DNA of 64,000 bases, from contig CALFLK010000025.1 in assembly GCA_937880095.1 (NCBI GenBank), forward strand, positions 108,351 through 172,350, in the 5' to 3' direction. The translations under genes and the position numbers were made by a program. Of the stretch, positions 10,611 to 60,185 are shown piece by piece. The notes under the pieces are model-generated. The model saw only the letters and a program-made list of their open reading frames with translations, did no database searches and was not told the DNA's origin. The stretch comes from an uncultured Faecalibacterium sp. (GTDB lineage: Bacteria > Bacillota > Clostridia > Oscillospirales > Ruminococcaceae). Position 1 is the stretch's first letter. Each line of letters opens with the position of its first letter.

Positions 10611-13047
10611 CGTCCTGTCCTCCTTCGTTTGTGATAACGCTGCCTGTAGAAACGGATGCATTCATCTCGCCGTGCAGCACACCGTCAAAGTCTGCATCCA
10701 CCATGCCGGATACATAACCACGCACATGACCCTGCAGCTTTACTGCACCGGTAGAGCTGTGGGTGGTACGGCGTTCAATGCCCTTGAGCTTAAAGCTGGT
10801 GCGCTCAATCAGGGTATCGCCCAGCACCAGAATTGCAGGCAGCACACCCAATACCAGCACAATAGAAATGATAGTACCACGGCCCAGACAGTTACCCATG
10901 ATGGCGATAACGGGCTGTGCCGACATATTGCCAATCAGCAGACCTGCCGATGCCATAATGCTGCCCGAAGTGAACACGGTGGGGAAGGATGCGTTCAAAG
11001 CCTGCACGATTGCTTCCTTATGAGGCATATGGGTTTTCAGCTCCTGATAGTGGCTGGAAATCACGATTGCATAGTCGATATTTGCGCCCATCTGAATGGC
11101 GTTTACAATCAAATAGCCCAGGAAATACAGCGGGGTCTGATTGATGGTAGGTACCGAGAAGTTGATCCAGATACTGCCCTGAATGACCAGAATCAGCAGC
11201 ACCGGCAGCGCCACCGACTGGAAGGTGAACAGCAGCACCAGAATAACGAACAATGCCGACAAAATACTGATCAGCAGGTTATCGCCCGCAAAGGACGCTG
11301 CCAAATCGCGGGAGCTGGTGGAGTTGCCCACCACATAATAATTGCCGGAATAGTATTTGCCCAAAAGGGAACGAATTTCGTCCAGGAAATGGAATGTTGC
11401 AGGGCTTTCTTCCGGCAGATTCAAAAATACAACCATACGGCTGTAATCCGGGTTATGCATCTGGTCCTGTGCGGTATCCAGCTGCTCGAACAGCTCGTCC
11501 ATCACTTCCTGTGCATCTCCACTCAGGTTCACATTGTGGGACTGCATCTGGTCTTTCAAAAACAGGAACATATCAAACAGCGGTACGTCGTATTCGGTCA
11601 AGCCGTTCAGCATTTCGCCGTACTGATCCTGCTCAAACGCATATGCCGTATACAGCGCACGCGCCACCTCGTAATCCAGACCGACCATTTCCGAGAACTG
11701 ACGCGGATTCACCGCATCCGTCAGCATATAGCCGTCCATGGCTTCCATGCTGGAAAGTGCCATCGTGCTCTTGACTTCCGGTCGGGATTCCAGCTCCTGC
11801 AGGATGGCTTGTTCGGCGGTATAGTTACCGCTGGGCACCACCAACGCCACCATGTTGGAAGAACCAAAGGTATCTCGAATCTGGAAATGCGCTACCTGAC
11901 GGTCGCTCATTTTGGCGGTTTCTACTTCATTGTAGCTGTAGCAGTAGGGGCACTGATTGGACAGCCAGAAAGCACCCACCAGCACAACTGCAAACACACC
12001 GGGCATCACATAGCGGGTTGCCACAGCAAATTTACCCACAGGGGTAATGTTGGGCAGCAGCTTTTTGTGCTGGGTCTTGTCGATCAGCGGACTGAACAGC
12101 ACCAGCAGACCGGGCATCAGGGTAAAGACGCTCAGCATGCTCAGCAGAACCGATTTGATCAGCACGATGGACATATCCAGACCGATGCGGAATTTCATAA
12201 AGGACAGCGCACCCAGACCGCTGATGGTAGTCAGCGAAGAAGCACTGATTTCCGGGATAGCCTTTGCCAGCGCATCAATGCAGGCATTGCGCACATCCTT
12301 GGTTTCGTGTTCATCCGAGAAACGGTGACACAAAATAATGGCGTAGTCGATAGCAAGCGCCAGCTGCAGCACCACGGCGATAGAGTCGGAAATGAAGCTG
12401 ATTTTTCCGCACAGAAAGTTCGTACCCATGTTCAAAAGCGCTGCTACACCAAAGGTAATCAACAGCACCGGAACTTCGGCATACGAGCGGGAGGTCAGGG
12501 TCAGAACGGCAATGATGATAACGACTGCCACCACCAGAATGCTGTTCATTTCCTGATTCAATTCTGCGATTTCATCATAGCCGATGGTGGTATCTACCGA
12601 TACGTCATAGCCGTCCAGTCGTTCCATGATGGTTTCCATAGCATCCAGAACGATGGGGTCATCTTCCTTGGCGGAGAAGTTCAAATCATACAAAGCGCAG
12701 GCGTCCTTGTAATGGTCTTTGGTATCATCAAAACCCACAATTTGCACGCCTTCCACCTCTGCCAGCATATCGCTGATTTTCTGAGCATCCTCATAGGTCA
12801 CATTCGATACCATGATTTGCGCCATAGCATAGGTTTCGAAGTTATCGTTCATGGCGGTCAAACCCTGACGGGTTTCGGTATCTGCCGGCAGATAGGTGGT
12901 CACATCGTTTTCCACCTCGACCCAGTTCATGGCAAACAGACAAAATACCACAGCAAAGCCATACAGTAAAAAGAATAAGTACCGCTTGTCCACAATAAAT
13001 GTGGCAAGCTTATGGAAAAATCCATTAGAAGAATCCTTATGGTCCAT
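10594..13047 (-). CDS. MMPL / RND-superfamily membrane transporter
   Basis: Two blocks of about six TM helices are each preceded by a large extracytoplasmic loop, which is the MMPL-type duplicated layout. The start was set at the third ATG (13045-13047), 6 nt after AAGGAG. The 3' end overlaps the GLUG gene by 17 nt. Confidence 0.8.
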   Translation of the reverse strand: MDHKDSSNGFFHKLATFIVDKRYLFFLLYGFAVVFCLFAMNWVEVENDVTTYLPADTETRQGLTAMNDNFETYAMAQIMVSNVTYEDAQKISDMLAEVEGVQIVGFDDTKDHYKDACALYDLNFSAKEDDPIVLDAMETIMERLDGYDVSVDTTIGYDEIAELNQEMNSILVVAVVIIIAVLTLTSRSYAEVPVLLITFGVAALLNMGTNFLCGKISFISDSIAVVLQLALAIDYAIILCHRFSDEHETKDVRNACIDALAKAIPEISASSLTTISGLGALSFMKFRIGLDMSIVLIKSVLLSMLSVFTLMPGLLVLFSPLIDKTQHKKLLPNITPVGKFAVATRYVMPGVFAVVLVGAFWLSNQCPYCYSYNEVETAKMSDRQVAHFQIRDTFGSSNMVALVVPSGNYTAEQAILQELESRPEVKSTMALSSMEAMDGYMLTDAVNPRQFSEMVGLDYEVARALYTAYAFEQDQYGEMLNGLTEYDVPLFDMFLFLKDQMQSHNVNLSGDAQEVMDELFEQLDTAQDQMHNPDYSRMVVFLNLPEESPATFHFLDEIRSLLGKYYSGNYYVVGNSTSSRDLAASFAGDNLLISILSALFVILVLLFTFQSVALPVLLILVIQGSIWINFSVPTINQTPLYFLGYLIVNAIQMGANIDYAIVISSHYQELKTHMPHKEAIVQALNASFPTVFTSGSIMASAGLLIGNMSAQPVIAIMGNCLGRGTIISIVLVLGVLPAILVLGDTLIERTSFKLKGIERRTTHSSTGAVKLQGHVRGYVSGMVDADFDGVLHGEMNASVSTGSVITNEGGQDDEENK

Positions 13048-34898: not shown

Positions 34899-35146
34899 CA
34901 AAAAAACGGGAGCCATGGCGCGTTACCATGACTCCCGGAATTTACTCTGTTACAAGTACACGTTCCTAAGACCACGACAGCGCTCCACAGGTCGCAAAAC
35001 CCGTGACAGACCAGAGGATATTATCCCAAGATCCGGCTATTTTCTGTCAGGCAACAGAAAATGCCTCGGCGACGGCCCCTTTCGCTCCCCCCGGCTGCCT
35101 GCCTTAACTTGGGAAAGCTACTCTTGACGCGTCGCGCCTCTATCAT
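34899..35146 (-). promoter_or_regulatory. lysine riboswitch (L-box): aptamer about 34975-35146, terminator/expression platform 34899-34939
   Basis: The minus strand carries the L-box hallmarks in order: AGAGGCGC, CAAGAGTA, GAAAGGGG, GTCGCCGAGG, CTGGTCTGTCAC and GTGGAGCGCTG. These are followed by the hairpin CGGGAGTCATGG/CCATGGCTCCCG and T7. Confidence 0.85.
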
Positions 35147-35170
35147 GTAATTTTCGATTGGACAAGTCTG

Positions 35171-35463: not shown

Positions 35464-35540
35464 TGGTGCGATGGGAGGGACTCGAACCCCCGACCTACTG
35501 GTTCGTAGCCAGTCACTCTATCCAGCTGAGCTACCAACGC
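35464..35540 (-). tRNA. tRNA-Arg (anticodon ACG), CCA encoded
   Basis: A manual cloverleaf fits. The D-arm is GCTC-AGCTGGATA-GAGT. The anticodon stem ACTGG/CCAGT carries the loop CTACGAA. The T-arm is GGGGG-TTCGAGT-CCCTC. There is one T-T mismatch in the acceptor stem. Confidence 0.85.
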
Positions 35541-43140: not shown

Positions 43141-44481
43141 TTATTTGTGCACTGCGGTTCTTCTTCTGCCGCGTGCCTGCGGGCGGTGCTTGCGGAACAA
43201 TACCGCAAAGTTTACTCTGCTATGGCTCAGCTGGGCAGTCAGATAACCCAGTGCAACCACAACCACCAGCACAGCCGGCACCAGCAAAAGTGCCCTCATG
43301 CTGCCTTTCAGCAGGGCAGATTCATACTTCTTGTCAGCAACCAGCGGTACACGACCAACTTCGCTGCCGTCCAGCTTTACGATTGCTGTACCCAGAGATT
43401 CGCCCTCCTTGATGGGCGCTTTGAATTCTTCCGGTGCTTCGATGTCAACGGTCAGGCTGGCATCATCATACGCGTGCTGCACCAAATCGGTGTTTGCGTG
43501 TAGCGTCACTACTTCGCTTTCATCACAGCCACGCAGTGCAACCTCACCCACTTTTTCGCCCTTGGTCAACAGGGTACGATCCGAGTAGCGCGCAAATGCC
43601 CAATCAAAAATAGAGTTTACTTCCGGATAGATATAGAAAGGCTCGTTCTTCTTTTCTTTTTTCGCGCCCAGAATTGCCAGCATATAGTTGTGGCCCTCGT
43701 GGCTGGACGTGGTAACAAAGCAGCGACCTGCCAACGTGGTAAAGCCGGTTTTCACACCGGAAATACCTTCGCGGTAATAGTCACCGTCGGGCAGTAGCAT
43801 CAGGTTGGTTGCTTCCAAATCCCGCGGCTGATCGTGCTTATTGTTTGCAGGAACGGTATACTTAACCGTATTGGCGATTTCCATGTACTTTTCATTCTGC
43901 CAGCAGGCAGTAGCAATCTTGACGATATCCTGTGCAGTAGAAACATTGCCCTGATCATACAAGCCATGGGGGCAGCCAAACTGGGTATTGGCGCAGCCCA
44001 GTGCTGCTGCTTTTTGGTTCATCTGATCCACAAAAGCGGGAATGCTGCCATTGCCAAAGTAATCCGCCAAAACGCTGGCTGCATCGTTGGCACTTGCCAC
44101 CAGCAGACCATACATCAAATCAATCAGGCGGATTTCTTCGCCCACAATCAGACGCATATCCGAGCCGTTGGCATTCTGAATATCTTTGAACTCCTGTGTC
44201 AGGCTTTCCGGCACAGTGATGGTTTTTTCCAAATCCTCGCCGCTTTCCAATACAAGCAGCGCCGTCATCATCTTCGTCAGGCTGGCTACATAGCGGGTTT
44301 CGCTACTATTCTGATCCAGCAGAACCGTGCCGTCATCCAAGTTTACCATGTAAACCGATTCATCTTCCATACTGGTCGTGATCGGCATATCGTATGCGGC
44401 ACTTGCCGGTACAGCCATCGCCACCACCAAAACCAGCACCAGCGCCAAGGCTGTCAGGCGGTTAAACAGTGTCTTTTTCAT
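43141..44481 (-). CDS. D-alanyl-D-alanine carboxypeptidase (serine-type, PBP5/S11 family) with a C-terminal membrane anchor
   Basis: Has a signal peptide, the SLTK (SxxK) active site, a KTG motif (GVKTGFT) and a C-terminal hydrophobic helix. Confidence 0.85.
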   Translation of the reverse strand: MKKTLFNRLTALALVLVLVVAMAVPASAAYDMPITTSMEDESVYMVNLDDGTVLLDQNSSETRYVASLTKMMTALLVLESGEDLEKTITVPESLTQEFKDIQNANGSDMRLIVGEEIRLIDLMYGLLVASANDAASVLADYFGNGSIPAFVDQMNQKAAALGCANTQFGCPHGLYDQGNVSTAQDIVKIATACWQNEKYMEIANTVKYTVPANNKHDQPRDLEATNLMLLPDGDYYREGISGVKTGFTTLAGRCFVTTSSHEGHNYMLAILGAKKEKKNEPFYIYPEVNSIFDWAFARYSDRTLLTKGEKVGEVALRGCDESEVVTLHANTDLVQHAYDDASLTVDIEAPEEFKAPIKEGESLGTAIVKLDGSEVGRVPLVADKKYESALLKGSMRALLLVPAVLVVVVALGYLTAQLSHSRVNFAVLFRKHRPQARGRRRTAVHK

Positions 44482-54981: not shown

Positions 54982-55242
54982 GGGCAATTCCTCCTTTTGT
55001 GTATTGGGAGGTATCCGGCAGAAAACAAAAAGCGCACAGCCCATCGCCGCTTTTCAGCCGCGATAAACCGTGCCCCATTTTGCCGCAAACTCGCAATCTT
55101 ACACTGCGGCTCTCCGGTAAAATAAGGTGTACGCATTCTTGTTGAGTTTCCTGCCAGACACACTGGCTTGCGGACTATGATCAGGGTCCATAAAAATGCG
55201 TTCACCTCCTGCAATTACTTCATAAAAATCCAGTCCTTAGTT

Positions 55243-55271
55243 ATTGTAACACCCGCTTTTTATCGGGTCAA
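55243..55271 (-). promoter_or_regulatory. sigma-70-type promoter for the mgtE leader
   Basis: On the minus strand: TTGACC, 17 nt, TACAAT. This implies a 5' leader of roughly 255 nt. Confidence 0.6.
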
Positions 55272-55292
55272 CCCCGCGCGGAACAGAAATCT

Positions 55293-55333
55293 TTTTCCAC
55301 CGATTTCGATTATTCCGTGGAAAACTTTCCACT
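55293..55333. promoter_or_regulatory. inverted repeat TTTTCCAC-N16-GTGGAAAA plus a third box CTTTCCACT, just upstream of the mgtE promoter
   Basis: Exact 8-bp arms at 55293-55300 and 55317-55324. The architecture is identical to that at 22271-22302. Confidence 0.5.
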
Positions 55334-55356
55334 CCAATTCCGCGCAAGAACTGTGC

Positions 55357-56034
55357 TTAAATATTCGCCTGACTGCGGAGTTTGTCCATCTTTTCGTCCA
55401 GCTCCATGCTGTTCTGGGCGCACAGCAGCAGGTCCCGCTGCATCTCCTCGGTAAACTCGGTCCCCTTTTTGTAGCGCAGCTGGTGTTCCAAGGATGCCCA
55501 GCAGTCCATTGCAATGGTGCGCAGCTGGATTTCTACCTTCATCATGCGCTTTTCCTTTTCCAAGAAAATGGGAATCTCCACAATCAGATGCAGACTGCGG
55601 TATCCATTGGGTTTGGGGTTTGCAATGTAATCCTTCATCTCAATCAGGGTAATGTCATCCTGATTCAAAAGCGCTTCTGACAAGGTATAAACATCCTTCA
55701 CAAAGGAACAAACCACTCGGATGCCCGCAATGTCATTCAGATGCGCTTCCATGGATTCCACATTGACCGGCAGACCCTTGCGCTCCAGCTTTTCGATGAT
55801 GCTGGGCAGCGATTTCAGGCGGGATTTAATGGTGTTGATGGGGTTGCGGTCATTCTGCAGCGAGGACTCCTCGTCCAGCACTTCAAACTTGGTCTGTACC
55901 TCCTTGATGGCACAGCGATAATAAGACATCAACCGACGAAATTCCAGTGTGCGACTGCGGGTCCATTCCAGACGCTTGATTTCCGCTTCTGACAAGGTTT
56001 CGTTTTTATCTTTTCCTCGAACAATCTTTTCCAT
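55357..56034 (-). CDS. small alarmone synthetase (RelQ/RelP-type GTP pyrophosphokinase, RelA/SpoT synthetase domain only)
   Basis: Has the synthetase-domain motifs DIAGIRVV, GYRSLHLIV and EIQLRT. Its size of about 225 aa fits the class, and an RBS (AAGGAG) is present. Confidence 0.85.
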   Translation of the reverse strand: MEKIVRGKDKNETLSEAEIKRLEWTRSRTLEFRRLMSYYRCAIKEVQTKFEVLDEESSLQNDRNPINTIKSRLKSLPSIIEKLERKGLPVNVESMEAHLNDIAGIRVVCSFVKDVYTLSEALLNQDDITLIEMKDYIANPKPNGYRSLHLIVEIPIFLEKEKRMMKVEIQLRTIAMDCWASLEHQLRYKKGTEFTEEMQRDLLLCAQNSMELDEKMDKLRSQANI

Positions 56035-56155
56035 GGTATCTCCTTATGTGAACAGCGCATCTACGCCGCTTTTCTACAATTCTTTGCTTTGTGTTGCGCA
56101 CTTTAACGCGGTGTTGAACACCCAGAACTATCCCAAAAAAGACAGTTCTCTCCTT

Positions 56156-56184
56156 ATTGTAACGGAAAGGACTGTCAGTTTCAA
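56156..56184 (-). promoter_or_regulatory. sigma-70-type promoter for the alarmone synthetase gene
   Basis: On the minus strand: TTGAAA, 17 nt, TACAAT. Confidence 0.6.
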
Positions 56185-56193
56185 TTTATTTCC

Positions 56194-56255
56194 AAAAAAA
56201 TACCTCCCCATTGCTTGTTGCAGCAAAGGGGAGGCTAAAAACGAGATTCGTTTTT
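56194..56255 (-). terminator. two consecutive intrinsic terminators on the minus strand
   Basis: The first hairpin is AAAAACGA/TCGTTTTT. The second is CCTCCCC...GGGGAGG followed by T7 when read on the minus strand. Both lie downstream of the structured region that follows the PFOR gene. Confidence 0.8.
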
Positions 56256-56298
56256 CCGTCGGCAAGATTTCCGTAAAAGCGGATCTTATGCAGACGTC

Positions 56299-56639
56299 GA
56301 AGCAAGGTATCCGCACGCAGACCTTATGCTTCTGGTACGAGCTTGTCGTACTCTCAAGGGCCCTCACGGGCGCTTTTGGTATTTTATGCGTTCAGCCTGC
56401 CGGGGGGATTGGAAATCCTTCTGCTGCTCTCTCCGCGCGATCAGAACAGAGCTGCGGTTGGATTTCCTTTCCTTACCGGGGTGGTACGCGTAAAATCATG
56501 GTTTGACGGTTCGCTCCGCGCGATCAGAATCGAACTGTCATTTTATGCGGCAGGGGGATACAGCGTACTCAGCGGATCCGCGCGATCAGAACCAACCGAG
56601 TTTGCTGTATCAACTGCACACCTTTTGTCCTAAGACAAA
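56299..56639. ncRNA. candidate structured RNA: four tandem stem-loops, three with an identical 15-nt apical-loop motif (strand unresolved)
   Basis: TCCGCGCGATCAGAA occurs at 56432-56446, 56515-56529 and 56577-56591, with a degenerate copy at 56309-56323. Each copy sits in the loop of a hairpin whose stem sequence differs from the others. No credible ORF is present. Confidence 0.45.
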
Positions 56640-59600
56640 TTACTTATACAGGTCAACCAGACGAGTCAGGTGCTCGTAACGTGCCTCAGCAGCCTTCTGG
56701 TTACGATCGAACAGTTCCTGTGCACGATCGGGGAAGGCGCGGCTCAGACGGCTGTAACGAGTCTCAGTTGCCAGGAAGTCCTGGTACTTGTCGTAGCTGC
56801 CGGGCTTGCTGGTCAGGGTGAACGGATTCTTGCCCTGTGCCTTCAGTGCCGGGTTGAAGGTGAACAGGTTCCAGTAACCAGCCTCAACTGCCTTCTTCAT
56901 CTCGTTCTGGCAGTTGGTCATGCCGCCCTTAATACCATGCAGCTCGCAGGGTGCGTAGCCGATGATCAGGGACGGGCCGGGGTAAGCCTCAGCCTCTGCG
57001 ATAGCCTTGACAGCCTGGGTCATGTTAGCGCCCAGAGCGATCTGTGCAACGTAGATGTAGCCGTAGGTCATGCAGATCTCAGACAGGCTCTTCTTGCTGA
57101 TTTCCTTACCAGCAGCAGCGAACTGGCAAACCTCGCCGATGTTGGAAGCCTTGGAAGCCTGTCCACCGGTGTTGGAGTACATCTCGGTATCGAAGACCAT
57201 CACGTTGACGTCCTCACCGGAAGCCAGAACGTGGTCCAGACCGCCGTAACCGATGTCGTATGCCCAGCCGTCGCCACCGAAGATCCAGACGGACTTCTTA
57301 GCGATGTACTGCTTCTCGTTCAGGATTTCCTTAGCCAGAGCGTTGCCGGAAGCTGCCAGCTTCTCCAGCTCAGCAGTGATTGCCTTTGCGGGCTCATCGT
57401 TTGCCTTAGTGTTGTTCTTGGTTGCGATGTACTGCTCATATGCTTCCTTGTAGGATGCGGGAGCAACTGCATCAGCTGCCAGCTCTGCCATACGCTTGAT
57501 CAGGTTCTCACGGATGGTCTTCTGGCCCAGGTACATACCCAGACCGTGCTGTGCGTTATCCTCGAACAGGGAGTTGCACCATGCGGGACCGTGGCCGGAA
57601 TCCTTGTTGACAGTGTAGGGAGAGATTGCTGCGGTACCGCCCCAGATAGAGGAGCAGCCGGTAGCGTTGGAGATGTACATCTTCTCACCGAACAGCTGGG
57701 TGATCAGACGTGCATAGCTGGTCTCGGCACAGCCTGCGCAGGAGCCAGAGAACTCCAGCAGGGGCTGGTTGAACTGAGAACCGATAACAGTGTCATCCGC
57801 AAAGCGAGAAGGCTTCTTGGAGATGTTGGCAACGCAGTAGTCGAAGACTTCCTGCTGATCTGCCTGGCTCTCCTGCGGCTGCATGGTGATAGCCTTGGTG
57901 GGGCAGACGGTGACACATTCGCCACAGCCCATGCAGTCCAGCGGAGAAACTGCCATAACGAACTTGTAGTCGTTAGCAGGCTTGTTGTCGCGGCTGGTGA
58001 TCTGCTTGGGTGCGTTTGCCAGCTCCTCAGCGGTCAGCTGGAAGGGACGGATGGTAGCGTGAGAGCAAACGAAAGCACACTGGTTACAGCCAACGCACTT
58101 CTCTGCGTCCCAAGCGGGAACGGTAACAGCGATACCACGCTTTTCGTAAGCGGATGCGCCCTGCTCCCACTCGCCGTCGGGGTTCTTGCTAAATGCAGAA
58201 ACCGGCAGGCTGTCGCCGTCCATACGAGCGATGGGCTCGGTAACCTCACGGATCTGCTTGACCAGTGCGGGTGCGCCCTCCAGCTCTGCGGGTGCGGGAT
58301 CAGCAGCGGGGTTGGACCACTCTGCGGGGACCTCGACCTTGTGGATAGCTTCCAGACCAGCGTCGATAGCCTTCCAGTTCATCTCGACAACTTCCTGGCC
58401 CTTCTTGCCGTAGGACTTCTCAGCTGCCTTCTTCATGAAGGTAACAGCGTCGTCGATGGGCATGACGTCAGCCAGCTTGAAGAATGCGGACTGCAGGATG
58501 GTATTGGTGCGCTTGCCCATACCGATCTCGATAGCCTTGTCGATAGCGTTGATGGTGTACAGCTGAATGTTGTTGTCAGCGATGTACTTCTTAGCAGCAG
58601 CGTTCAGGTGCTCGCCCAGCTCTTCATCAGTCCACTGGCAGTTAACCATGAAGATACCGCCGGGCTTAACGTCCTGCACCATCTTGATGCCCTGGTTGAT
58701 GTAAGAAGGAGTATGGCAAGCAACGAAGTCAGCCTGGTTGATGTAGTAGGGGCTGTGAATCGGGTTGTCGCCGAAACGCAGGTGGCTGATGGTTACGCCG
58801 CCGGTCTTCTTGGAGTCATACTGGAAGTATGCCTGAACATACTTATCAGTGTGGTCACCGATGATCTTAACGGAGTTCTTATTTGCGCCAACGGTACCGT
58901 CGCCGCCCAGACCCCAGAACTTGCACTCCTTGGTGCCCTTAGCTGCGGTGATGGGTGCGGGCTTGACCTCAGGCAGAGACAGGAAGGTCACGTCGTCGGT
59001 GATGCCCAGGGTGAAACGTGCCTTGGGCTCGTCCTTAGCCAGCTCAGCAAACAGAGCGAAGATAGAGGACGGGGGAGTGTCCTTGCTGCCCAGACCGTAA
59101 CGGCCGCCGGTCAGAACGATGTCGTTCAGGCCAGCCTCACGCAGGGTAGCAGCAACATCCAGGTACAGGGGCTCGCCCAGAGAGCCGGGCTCCTTGGTGC
59201 GGTCCAGAACTGCAACCTTCTTAGCGGTAGCAGGCAGAACCTTCAGCAGGTGCTTTGCAGACCAGGGACGGAACAGGCGAACCTTGATCAGGCCGACCTT
59301 CTCGCCCTTTGCCACCAGGTAATCGATGACTTCCTCTGCGACGTCGCAGATGGAACCCATAGCGATGATGACGCGCTCTGCGTCAGGTGCACCGTGGTAG
59401 TTGAACAGATCGTAGTTGGTACCCAGCTTCTCGTTGATCTTGCCCATGTACTTTTCGACAACTGCGGGCAGAGCATTGTAAGCGGAGTTGCAAGCCTCAC
59501 GATGCTGGAAGAAAACGTCGCCGTTTTCGTGAGAACCACGCATCTTGGGGTGCTCGGGGTTCAGTGCCTTGTTACGGAAGTCCTCAACGGCCTCCATGTT

Positions 59601-60185
59601 GCACATTTCCTTCAGGTCAGCGTAGTCCCACTTTTCGATCTTCTGGTATTCGTGAGAAGTACGGAAACCATCGAAGAAGTTGACGAAGGGTACGCGGCCC
59701 TCGATTGCTGCCAGGTGGGCAACAGGGGACAGGTCCATGACTTCCTGCACGGAGCCTTCAGCCAGCATTGCGAAGCCGGTCTGACGGACAGCCATAACGT
59801 CGCTGTGGTCACCGAAGATGTTCAGGGACTGGGTAGCAACGGTACGTGCGGAAACGTGGAAAACGCTGGGCAGCATTTCGCCGGCGATCTTGTACATGTT
59901 GGGGATCATCAGCAGCAGGCCCTGAGATGCGGTAAAGGTAGTGGTGATAGCACCAGCACCCAGAGAGCCGTGAACGGCACCTGCAGCACCGCCCTCAGAC
60001 TCCATCTCAACAACCTTGACCTGGTTGCCGAAGATGTTCTTCTGGCCGGCAGCAGACCACTGATCACAGAAGTCTGCCATAGGAGAAGACGGGGTAATGG
60101 GATAGATGGCAGCTACGTCGGTAAAGGCGTATGCTACATGAGCAGCAGCAGTATTGCCATCCATGGTTTGCTTTGCTCTAGGCAT
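56640..60185 (-). CDS. nifJ: pyruvate:ferredoxin (flavodoxin) oxidoreductase
   Basis: The roughly 1180-aa single-chain PFOR begins MPRAKQTMDGNTAAAHVAYAF..IYPITPSS. It has an internal 2x[4Fe-4S] segment (CVGCNQCAFVCSH, CMGCGECVTVCP) and a TPP-binding GGDGW motif. The start at 60185 has a GGAGGAAGAACA RBS. Confidence 0.95.
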   Translation of the reverse strand: MPRAKQTMDGNTAAAHVAYAFTDVAAIYPITPSSPMADFCDQWSAAGQKNIFGNQVKVVEMESEGGAAGAVHGSLGAGAITTTFTASQGLLLMIPNMYKIAGEMLPSVFHVSARTVATQSLNIFGDHSDVMAVRQTGFAMLAEGSVQEVMDLSPVAHLAAIEGRVPFVNFFDGFRTSHEYQKIEKWDYADLKEMCNMEAVEDFRNKALNPEHPKMRGSHENGDVFFQHREACNSAYNALPAVVEKYMGKINEKLGTNYDLFNYHGAPDAERVIIAMGSICDVAEEVIDYLVAKGEKVGLIKVRLFRPWSAKHLLKVLPATAKKVAVLDRTKEPGSLGEPLYLDVAATLREAGLNDIVLTGGRYGLGSKDTPPSSIFALFAELAKDEPKARFTLGITDDVTFLSLPEVKPAPITAAKGTKECKFWGLGGDGTVGANKNSVKIIGDHTDKYVQAYFQYDSKKTGGVTISHLRFGDNPIHSPYYINQADFVACHTPSYINQGIKMVQDVKPGGIFMVNCQWTDEELGEHLNAAAKKYIADNNIQLYTINAIDKAIEIGMGKRTNTILQSAFFKLADVMPIDDAVTFMKKAAEKSYGKKGQEVVEMNWKAIDAGLEAIHKVEVPAEWSNPAADPAPAELEGAPALVKQIREVTEPIARMDGDSLPVSAFSKNPDGEWEQGASAYEKRGIAVTVPAWDAEKCVGCNQCAFVCSHATIRPFQLTAEELANAPKQITSRDNKPANDYKFVMAVSPLDCMGCGECVTVCPTKAITMQPQESQADQQEVFDYCVANISKKPSRFADDTVIGSQFNQPLLEFSGSCAGCAETSYARLITQLFGEKMYISNATGCSSIWGGTAAISPYTVNKDSGHGPAWCNSLFEDNAQHGLGMYLGQKTIRENLIKRMAELAADAVAPASYKEAYEQYIATKNNTKANDEPAKAITAELEKLAASGNALAKEILNEKQYIAKKSVWIFGGDGWAYDIGYGGLDHVLASGEDVNVMVFDTEMYSNTGGQASKASNIGEVCQFAAAGKEISKKSLSEICMTYGYIYVAQIALGANMTQAVKAIAEAEAYPGPSLIIGYAPCELHGIKGGMTNCQNEMKKAVEAGYWNLFTFNPALKAQGKNPFTLTSKPGSYDKYQDFLATETRYSRLSRAFPDRAQELFDRNQKAAEARYEHLTRLVDLYK

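Follow-up and report, generated by a model that had tools for sequence, protein, structure and literature searches.

RNAs of the CsrB/RsmY/RsmZ kind present one short motif, A(N)GGA, in the loops of several hairpins, at copy numbers that vary between species, and end in a Rho-independent terminator. The Gram-positive small RNAs (sRNAs) RsaE/RoxS and LhrC repeat their seed in several loops, with C-rich motifs (UCCC/CCCC) aimed at Shine–Dalgarno sequences. Other sRNAs, namely SdhX (sdhCDAB-sucABCD), CpxQ, and NarS, derive from 3' untranslated regions (3'UTRs), in the first case that of a central-metabolism operon; sRNAs of this type are about 60–100 nt long, are mostly unstructured apart from the terminator, and have a single-stranded seed used with Hfq. 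Larger multi-helix noncoding RNAs (ncRNAs) such as ROOL, GOLLD, OLE, and raiA occur in certain Firmicutes lineages, and, at the DNA level, repetitive extragenic palindromic (REP) elements are known 3' of highly expressed operons. Here, we analyze the intergenic region 56035–56639 of a 64-kb stretch of DNA from an uncultured Faecalibacterium sp. (contig CALFLK010000025.1), called the window below; it is flanked by two minus-strand genes, that of pyruvate:ferredoxin (flavodoxin) oxidoreductase (PFOR) upstream and that of a RelQ/YjbM-like small alarmone synthetase (relQ) downstream. The region holds a candidate structured RNA, conserved in at least 11 lineages and each time located directly 3' of PFOR. 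Faecalibacterium is among the most abundant, health-associated genera of the human and animal gut, and its butyrate-forming fermentation has PFOR as the central enzyme; to our knowledge, RNA-based regulation in this genus is almost unexplored.

Three hairpins of the candidate RNA end in the same tip, which reads UUCUG-AUCGCG-CGGA(R) on the RNA strand and consists of a 4–5-bp stem, including one U-G pair, and a 6-nt loop, AUCGCG (hereinafter, the cap). The functional analogy that we favor is with CsrB/RsmY/RsmZ, which likewise have several hairpins with the same short motif, a copy number that differs between species, and a Rho-independent terminator. There is, however, no sequence or Rfam similarity; the module here is a 12–15-nt stem and hexaloop, unlike the loop-borne A(N)GGA, and it is present in only 1–3 copies, in an RNA that apparently continues an mRNA at its 3' end and has a large, non-repetitive, covarying core. 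A CsrA-type sponge as such is unlikely, because the loop AUCGCG does not expose the multiple A(N)GGA motifs expected of one, and the GGA within CGGAR belongs to the 3' stem strand.

With the 3'UTR-derived sRNAs, the candidate RNA shares its place directly behind the stop codon of a metabolic gene with high expression, on the same strand, with the stretch from stop codon to terminator in common with the mRNA, whose level its own would follow; at ~230–450 nt and with at least seven helices, however, it is far from the short, mostly unstructured type. The recurrence of an identical short sequence on several hairpins of one RNA is reminiscent of RsaE/RoxS and LhrC, but here the loop reads AUCGCG and the conserved block is for the most part paired. 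Like REP elements and bacterial interspersed mosaic elements (BIMEs), the array consists of imperfect palindromes 3' of a highly expressed gene and could protect the mRNA 3' end; those elements are dispersed in hundreds of copies, whereas this one occurs at one locus, within a single-copy conserved RNA, and the many copies expected of REP, BIME, or miniature inverted-repeat transposable elements (MITEs) are absent from the about 64 kb and the related flanks examined. Finally, the candidate RNA resembles ROOL, GOLLD, OLE, and raiA in being a multi-helix bacterial ncRNA with a GNRA loop and possibly self-complementary loops in certain Firmicutes lineages, but it matches none of their Rfam models, is much smaller, and is attached to the PFOR gene. 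We regard it as a new RNA family whose general kind is already known, with the hairpin array as its variable, partner-predicting part.

Results

Hairpin array and conserved core

The 15-mer TCCGCGCGATCAGAA, the plus-strand form of the cap, occurs exactly three times in the window, at 56432, 56515, and 56577 (+). Each copy is the tip of an inverted repeat, and the arm sequences differ between copies, just as the first-pass annotation of this DNA had described. No further match with up to two mismatches is found anywhere in the 64 kb; at up to three mismatches, the sole other match lies at 44309, within chance expectation. The same annotation had taken the 15-mer for an open apical loop; the minus strand forms instead the short UUCUG/CGGAR stem closing AUCGCG.

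The array, previously considered a self-contained unit, proves to be a peripheral domain, with 0, 1, 2, or 3 hairpins, of a larger RNA that is conserved. Downstream of it lies a core of ~190 nt with six helices, common to the relatives. Two of these helices, P4 and P5, look alike and carry the invariant motif GCAUAAGRYC/AYCUUGC. P4 coincides with a hairpin that had been read as a fourth, decayed copy of the capped hairpins (H0); relatives without the 15-mer also have this helix, whose loop is free to vary (CGUG, CCAA, UUU, and others).

Orthologous intergenic regions were fetched using RelQ homologues (74–92% identical) as anchors, supplemented by one exact-pattern scan each of genome and metagenome collections; both large scans used the exact P4 pattern, so that divergent members would escape them. 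The resulting core alignment, A2, contains 16 sequences from ~11 lineages. RNAalifold yields 60 pairs on A2, 21 of them with compensatory changes; one spurious A/U helix was removed, leaving 56 pairs. These are 95.4% standard-paired, versus 37–45% when the partners are slid by 1–3 columns, and double changes are seen in 21 pairs, versus 3–5 in the slid controls. None of 500 shuffles matches the observed pairing or covariation score; since the sequences of A2 are related, the shuffle statistics overstate significance, and the slid-partner control is the fairer one, still giving a clear result.

The stem closest to the array, P1, is also common to all lineages. Its 5' strand GAUUUUACGCG pairs with CGCAUAAAAU (56381–56390), with wobble and compensatory variation: the 5' strand retains GAUUU(U/C)A in all lineages, A-to-G changes in the 3' strand retain U-G pairs, and CGCG/CGCA of the window becomes CGUG/CACA in the homologous locus L011 (homologous loci are denoted by L and a number). 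The site of the hairpin H1, at the apex of P1, is occupied by a variable hairpin in every lineage.

In the array itself, comparison of orthologous stems between the window and the loci L003–L005 reveals compensatory substitutions in three pairs of H3 and in one pair of H2, the cap being unchanged. Over 22 distinct instances with seven sequence variants, the block CUGAUYGCGCGG holds 2.0 bits per position, versus ~0.5 in the flanking stems. Because the stems change in a compensatory manner and the cap stays fixed, the RNA is under selection for structure, as had been supposed from the window alone, and the cap is under purifying selection. The array arises by tandem duplication of the P1 tip; its stems then drift under structural constraint, and its caps are held by strict sequence constraint. 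We hold the existence of a conserved, structured, minus-strand RNA at this locus to be highly probable.

A protein-coding explanation was considered separately. No reading frame is kept among the homologues in A2; the many indels of 1, 2, and 4 nt scattered through this alignment exclude a coding frame, and the 5' domain varies by entire hairpins. The length of open reading frames is no guide to coding status here, the region being GC-rich.

A footprint of duplication is visible in the window, where the unit consisting of a hairpin, a C-run, and then CGCAUAAAAU occurs twice. The duplicated unit explains the G-runs that had been noticed before the hairpins: the runs are real, but on the RNA strand they are C-runs and belong to this unit. 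The upstream copy of CGCAUAAAAU (56540–56549) marks the segmental duplication, and it could pair with the 5' strand of P1 as an alternative to P1, i.e., around H2 rather than around H1.

The two CGCAUAAAAU copies flank GAUUUUACGCG, an arrangement seen only in the clade of the window and L003. These twin sites could be a structural switch or a mere remnant of the duplication.

Coding strand of the RNA

The candidate RNA is read from the minus strand, the same as that of PFOR. The region folds better than its dinucleotide shuffles in both orientations, with z = –5.6 on the minus strand and z = –3.5 on the plus strand. All caps have U-G on the minus strand where the plus strand would have a C-A mismatch; 26 of 27 distinct capped hairpins from nine relatives are more stable in the PFOR sense (–571 vs. 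–479 kcal/mol summed); and invariant G-U pairs of the core would be A-C on the opposite strand. Scores with the covariance model of the core are 149–226 bits for the PFOR strand and do not exceed 20 bits for its complement. These results, together with the terminator on the minus strand (see below), decide the strand.

The first-pass annotation had preferred a plus-strand RNA, antisense to the 3' end of PFOR and bounded by an extended –10 element (56377–56385) and a weak hairpin (56624–56648), because of a few G-T pairs in the plus-strand stems. The minimum free energies are indeed of similar absolute size (–144 kcal/mol on the plus strand and –141.7 kcal/mol on the minus strand); however, the G-T argument is contradicted by the cap U-G pairs, the hairpin stabilities, and the model scores, the proposed boundaries have no comparative support, the sole promoter-like site on the plus strand is weak and lies inside H2, and a plus-strand terminator is absent, so that we regard this possibility as practically eliminated.

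Predicted transcript ends and relation to PFOR

The candidate RNA begins directly behind the PFOR stop codon (56640–56642). Between the stop codon (56640) and 56235, no terminator is found. The first intrinsic terminator is the last element of the core, with a 13-bp GC-rich stem followed by U7; it covaries in the relatives and had been missed by a simple terminator scan owing to one internal U-U mismatch. No promoter is found on the minus strand of the window between PFOR and P1, and none conserved by eye in the other lineages.

The absence of an intervening terminator or conserved promoter, the constancy of PFOR as a neighbor, and the immediate termination of PFOR in those relatives that lack the RNA are most simply explained if the RNA forms the 3'UTR of the PFOR mRNA. 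A long structured PFOR 3'UTR ending at the minus-strand terminators had been the fallback of the first-pass annotation and is now the favored reading. Co-transcription of the candidate RNA with PFOR is thus probable, and the terminator at the end of the core would be the common 3' end of both.

The relQ gene has a near-consensus promoter of its own, outside the RNA. The conserved hairpin with a U-tract, whose loop holds the relQ –10 box, is probably an extra read-through terminator or an insulator overlapping this promoter. A leader or riboswitch of relQ was considered and rejected, given the strong terminator and near-consensus promoter that intervene and the change of the downstream gene between lineages.

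Features of the region are listed in Table 1.

Table 1. Elements of the PFOR–relQ intergenic region and the adjacent genes in the window, ordered along the minus strand
Feature	Position	Strand	Description	Basis
PFOR/NifJ	56640..60185	minus	Pyruvate:ferredoxin (flavodoxin) oxidoreductase gene, 1181 aa	TIGR02176, 1695 bits (cutoff 911); Pfam domains
Full candidate ncRNA or structured PFOR 3'UTR	56194..56639	minus	~446 nt, beginning behind the PFOR stop codon and ending with the terminator U-tract	Fold and conservation
hp0	56624..56639	minus	Small hairpin UUUGUC-UUAG-GACAAA directly behind the stop codon; not a terminator, because it has no U-tract	Fold
H3	56557..56611	minus	Long three-segment hairpin with cap UUCUG-AUCGCG-CGGA at 56577–56591	Fold; 3 compensatory pairs vs. 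L003–L005
Upstream CGCAUAAAAU copy	56540..56549	minus	Second copy of the sequence of the P1 3' strand	Direct repeat D4; sequence inspection
H2	56505..56539	minus	GACAGUUCG-A-UUCUG AUCGCG CGGAG-CGAACCGUC, cap at 56515–56529	Fold; 1 compensatory pair vs. L003
P1, 5' strand	56487..56497	minus	GAUUUUACGCG, pairs with 56378–56390 and encloses H1	Fold, comparison
H1	56411..56467	minus	Hairpin at the apex of P1, cap at 56432–56446	Fold; compare the P1 apex of L011, L015, L006, L027
P1, 3' strand and junction	56378..56390	minus	CGCAUAAAAUACC, AUACC invariant	Alignment A2
P2	56358..56373	minus	GNRA-tetraloop hairpin, GUGA in the window and GCAA, GGGA, GCGA in relatives	3 covarying pairs
P3	56335..56351	minus	Hairpin GUACGA...UCGUAC	4 of 6 pairs covary
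P4 (former H0)	56299..56332	minus	GAAGCAUAAGGUC...GAUACCUUGCUUC, invariant base, variable tip	Alignment, consensus fold
P5	56257..56298	minus	Second GCAUAAGAYC...AUCUUGC hairpin on a covarying basal stem	5 covarying pairs
P6	56237..56255	minus	A5-CGA...UCG-U5 hairpin, sequence conserved, weak-terminator-like	Alignment, consensus fold
Intrinsic terminator	56194..56235	minus	Strong; GCCUCCCC...GGGGAGG, then U7	7 covarying pairs; sequence
relQ promoter	56184–56156	minus	TTGAAA-17-TACAAT, near-consensus, outside the RNA	Promoter scan
Hairpin with U-tract	56135–56176	minus	Conserved; relQ –10 box in its loop	Covaries in L003, L006, L011
relQ	55357..56034	minus	RelQ/YjbM-like small alarmone synthetase gene	PF04607; NF053588, 171.7 bits (under the equivalog cutoff of 320)

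Distribution and variation among lineages

Loci identical or nearly identical to that of the window come from gut-metagenome contigs and metagenome-assembled genomes (MAGs) named Faecalibacterium sp. All true matches of the scans lie directly behind a PFOR stop codon (...CTGTACAAGTAA) and belong to Faecalibacterium/Oscillospiraceae MAGs, plus one contig labeled Bacteroides sp. CAG:545. The RNA is found 3' of PFOR in the window, L003, L006, L009, L010, L011, L015, L016, L027, L046, and L047, and the covariance model detects exactly one copy per RNA-bearing locus. It gives no match in the remainder of the window, behind PFOR in L051 or L052/L053, or in L013. The last has relQ without an adjacent PFOR; L051 and L052/L053 are PFOR relatives (C-terminal domain 86% and 82% identical, respectively) and have, in place of the RNA, a plain terminator 40–110 nt past the PFOR stop codon.

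The contig labeled Bacteroides (L021, CAVIXY010000118.1) has a Faecalibacterium-type core almost identical to that of L016 and is probably mis-binned.

The number of hairpins varies from 0 to 3 across the lineages, some of which have further hairpins upstream of the P1 tip, and the core is kept throughout. Three hairpins with the cap UUCUGAUCGCGCGGA are present in the window, L003–L005, L010, and L047, and two in L006/L007; at least two with the same cap are seen in L026, whose 5' end is incomplete. L046 has three hairpins, all with an identical C-to-U change of this cap, giving CUGAUUGCGCGG; hairpins 2 and 3 of L046 are near-identical, stems included, so that two of the three are clearly recent duplicates. 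A different cap, CCAGACGUGG, is borne by two hairpins in L009/L033 and by one in L011, while L015, L016, and L027 have a single P1 tip with other sequences. PFOR coding DNA is ~90% identical between lineages, yet BLAST alignments end at the PFOR stop codon.

The downstream gene differs by lineage, being relQ, a DUF6054 gene followed by relQ, or mgtE. The RelQ/YjbM-like gene is the downstream neighbor in most, though not all, lineages; it is found behind the RNA in 8 of 11, including all of those with capped hairpins. L015, L016, and L027, the three lineages in which caps are not multiplied, are those in which no relQ was found downstream; in L015, it is replaced by mgtE.

The DUF6054 (PF19524) gene, of ~115 aa, lies between the RNA terminator and relQ in L006 (5630–5983), L011 (5558–5905), and L046 (2113–2457). 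It is not present in the window, and its presence is uncorrelated with the type of cap.

Comparison with known RNA families

Among the 4227 models of Rfam 15, the window at the gathering threshold has matches only to the lysine riboswitch and tRNA, both elsewhere in the window. The region 56000–56800, searched at E up to 10, gives only noise (E at least 3.8), as does the minimal homologue L011, and 13 related loci have zero matches at the gathering threshold. Accordingly, the earlier impression that the element belongs to no named family holds at both settings. A literature search found no publication about sRNAs of Faecalibacterium or about any RNA located downstream of PFOR. Fremin and Bhatt (2021) list Faecalibacterium motifs, none of which, in the part of that source available to us, is flagged by PFOR or RelA_SpoT neighbors; the RNA may have been listed there or elsewhere before.

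The two Rfam matches are a lysine riboswitch (98 bits) at 34970–35150 (–) and a tRNA gene at 35467–35540 (–).

Discussion

Proposed role

The RNA would most likely arise as the 3' portion of the PFOR mRNA, which is abundant, and perhaps be trimmed afterwards to a stable RNA. It consists of two parts, the conserved core (P2, P3, P4, P5, P6, and the terminator) and the P1 stem with a variable tip hairpin. In the lineage of the window, the tip hairpin has been duplicated, resulting in three copies of an invariant module, N-UUCUG-AUCGCG-CGGAR, on freely changing stems. The identical modules might then act as multivalent recognition sites for a sequence-specific trans-acting partner, a protein more likely than an RNA, which the RNA would titrate or scaffold in proportion to PFOR transcription.

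A specific partner is suggested by the presentation of conserved modules 1–3 times on stems that are free to vary, and also by the use of a different module in sister lineages and the like change of all copies in one lineage. For the explanation as a whole, i.e., a PFOR-borne structured RNA with a recognition-hairpin domain of variable copy number, we consider the chances evenly balanced; the function as a multivalent protein decoy or scaffold, and the nature of the partner, are proposed only tentatively.

The locus provides a well-defined, covariation-supported RNA that appears to be attached to the PFOR transcript. Its signature is unusual: a recognition hairpin copied 1–3 times, identical within a genome, with drifting stems, and with another cap in sister lineages; such a signature predicts a specific partner and could reveal how these bacteria tie pyruvate oxidation to another process, possibly the neighboring stringent response.

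Several points weigh against this interpretation. The family is narrow, being confined to a subclade of one genus, and orphan RNA motifs of this sort are numerous. Its narrow range, like the invariance of P4, is partly due by construction to the P4-anchored sampling. The family does not depend on this particular 15-mer, as L015, L016, and L027 have single, different P1 tips. The C-to-U change common to the L046 caps may stem from recent duplication and not from co-evolution with a partner. In some lineages, the RNA may be an independent gene, given a promoter-like match in L011 (TTAGCA-16-TATACT, 9 of 12 positions) just ahead of P1, which is not conserved in the other lineages. Transcription of the RNA, its ends, and its processing are all inferred from sequence, as is its role, and the trans-acting partner is putative.

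Alternative explanations

One further point of this kind is that the 15 nt are invariant on both strands of the cap stem, without covariation, as would be expected of a contiguous seed more than of a cap with a purely structural role. The candidate RNA might accordingly be a base-pairing sRNA, either derived from the 3'UTR or independently transcribed, the repeated cap being a redundant seed where AUCGCG nucleates pairing that extends through the 15-mer, the partner being a complementary stretch of one or several target mRNAs. The C-to-U change of L046 would still allow wobble pairing with a target G, and a terminator in common with an mRNA is typical of known 3'UTR-derived sRNAs. However, the best duplex in the window has –21.2 kcal/mol (RNAduplex), compared to –20.0 to –24.4 kcal/mol for 20 shuffled caps, this comparison being limited to the 64 kb; the only near-match to the cap complement in the window has three mismatches, within chance; a stable 5-bp stem would keep the seed hidden; and the unrelated caps CCAGACGUGG and CUGCUCGCGAACAG of other lineages would demand targets changing in step. 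We consider a seed function unlikely, if less so than the explanations that follow.

The caps might also be architectural, their self-complementary loops kissing within or between RNAs to produce a higher-order fold or particle. Palindromes are present in the loops of several lineages (GAUC and CGCG/GCGC in the first cap, ACGU in the second, and UCGCGA in L015), GCGC survives the change in L046, and the GNRA tetraloop of P2 and the duplicated motifs of P4 and P5 suggest tertiary packing. Three large bacterial RNAs, namely GOLLD, ROOL, and OLE, are reported to form homo-oligomeric assemblies (PMC12286853). On the other hand, short CG-rich sequences are very often palindromic by chance, no clear palindrome is seen in the P1 tip of L006, L016, or L027, and the 4-nt loop of the second cap is too small for a kissing complex, making this an improbable role. 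A search by eye for a pseudoknot partner of the loop revealed no complementary segment conserved across the lineages with the first and second caps.

About equally improbable is a functional core with near-neutral expansion segments, in which the extra hairpins have little effect and the identity of the caps results from recent duplication or gene conversion rather than from selection for multivalency. The duplicated unit of hairpin, C-run, and CGCAUAAAAU in the window, the near-identity of two hairpins in L046, and the variation of the copy number from 0 to 3 without loss of the core would all be expected. What this fails to explain is that the cap is identical where the stems are unalignable and the 5' domains cannot be aligned by BLAST, despite the similarity of PFOR DNA, and that orthologous stems gain compensatory changes and the cap none; gene conversion confined to exactly 12–15 nt per hairpin is unlikely.

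We know of no defined physiological RNA partner of RelQ. Tetramers of Enterococcus faecalis RelQ are inhibited by bound single-stranded RNA and freed from this by (p)ppGpp (Beljantseva 2017, as summarized in PMC10117726). The candidate RNA could be a natural ligand of RelQ, with the distribution of relQ and capped hairpins over the lineages as circumstantial evidence; this is very doubtful, but, if true, a multivalent RNA on the PFOR mRNA would couple central carbon flux to alarmone synthesis.

A DNA-level or dispersed repeat, i.e., a REP/BIME- or MITE-like element or a set of sites for a DNA-binding protein or methylase, would fit the GATC and CGCG palindromes of the motif and its place 3' of a highly expressed gene; it is hardly tenable, as the motif is found at this locus alone in the window and all related flanks examined, the stems covary like RNA helices, including strand-asymmetric G-U pairs, and 37 matches in viral contigs have no hairpin context (at most two flanking pairs) and are due to chance or coding sequence.

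A ToxI-like array of a type III toxin–antitoxin system was considered and rejected: the units are 35–57 nt long, with differing stems and spacings of 62 and 83 nt, a strong terminator and a separate promoter precede relQ, and relQ is absent downstream in L015.

Additional observations

The ~310-nt region between relQ and a gene of the MgtE family (window 55045–55356, minus strand) has a good promoter, TTGACC-17-TACAAT; no M-box or other Rfam match is found in it, even at E up to 10. L015 and L016 have a common conserved stretch upstream of mgtE, past the RNA terminator. The region upstream of mgtE may be an undescribed mgtE leader.

Two contigs of the JGI metagenome collection, L036 (~12100–12700) and L042 (~300–580), contain unrelated tandem GAAGCATAAG units and repeated GCTTCCTTCGGAAAGCA blocks, which are chance matches of the pattern. 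An IMG/VR contig, L062 (2640–2740), contains two copies of GAGATTCTGATCGCGCGG 63 nt apart in a high-GC, coding-looking repeat (GGCGAGAT... units); since there is no hairpin context, this match to the cap is coincidental.

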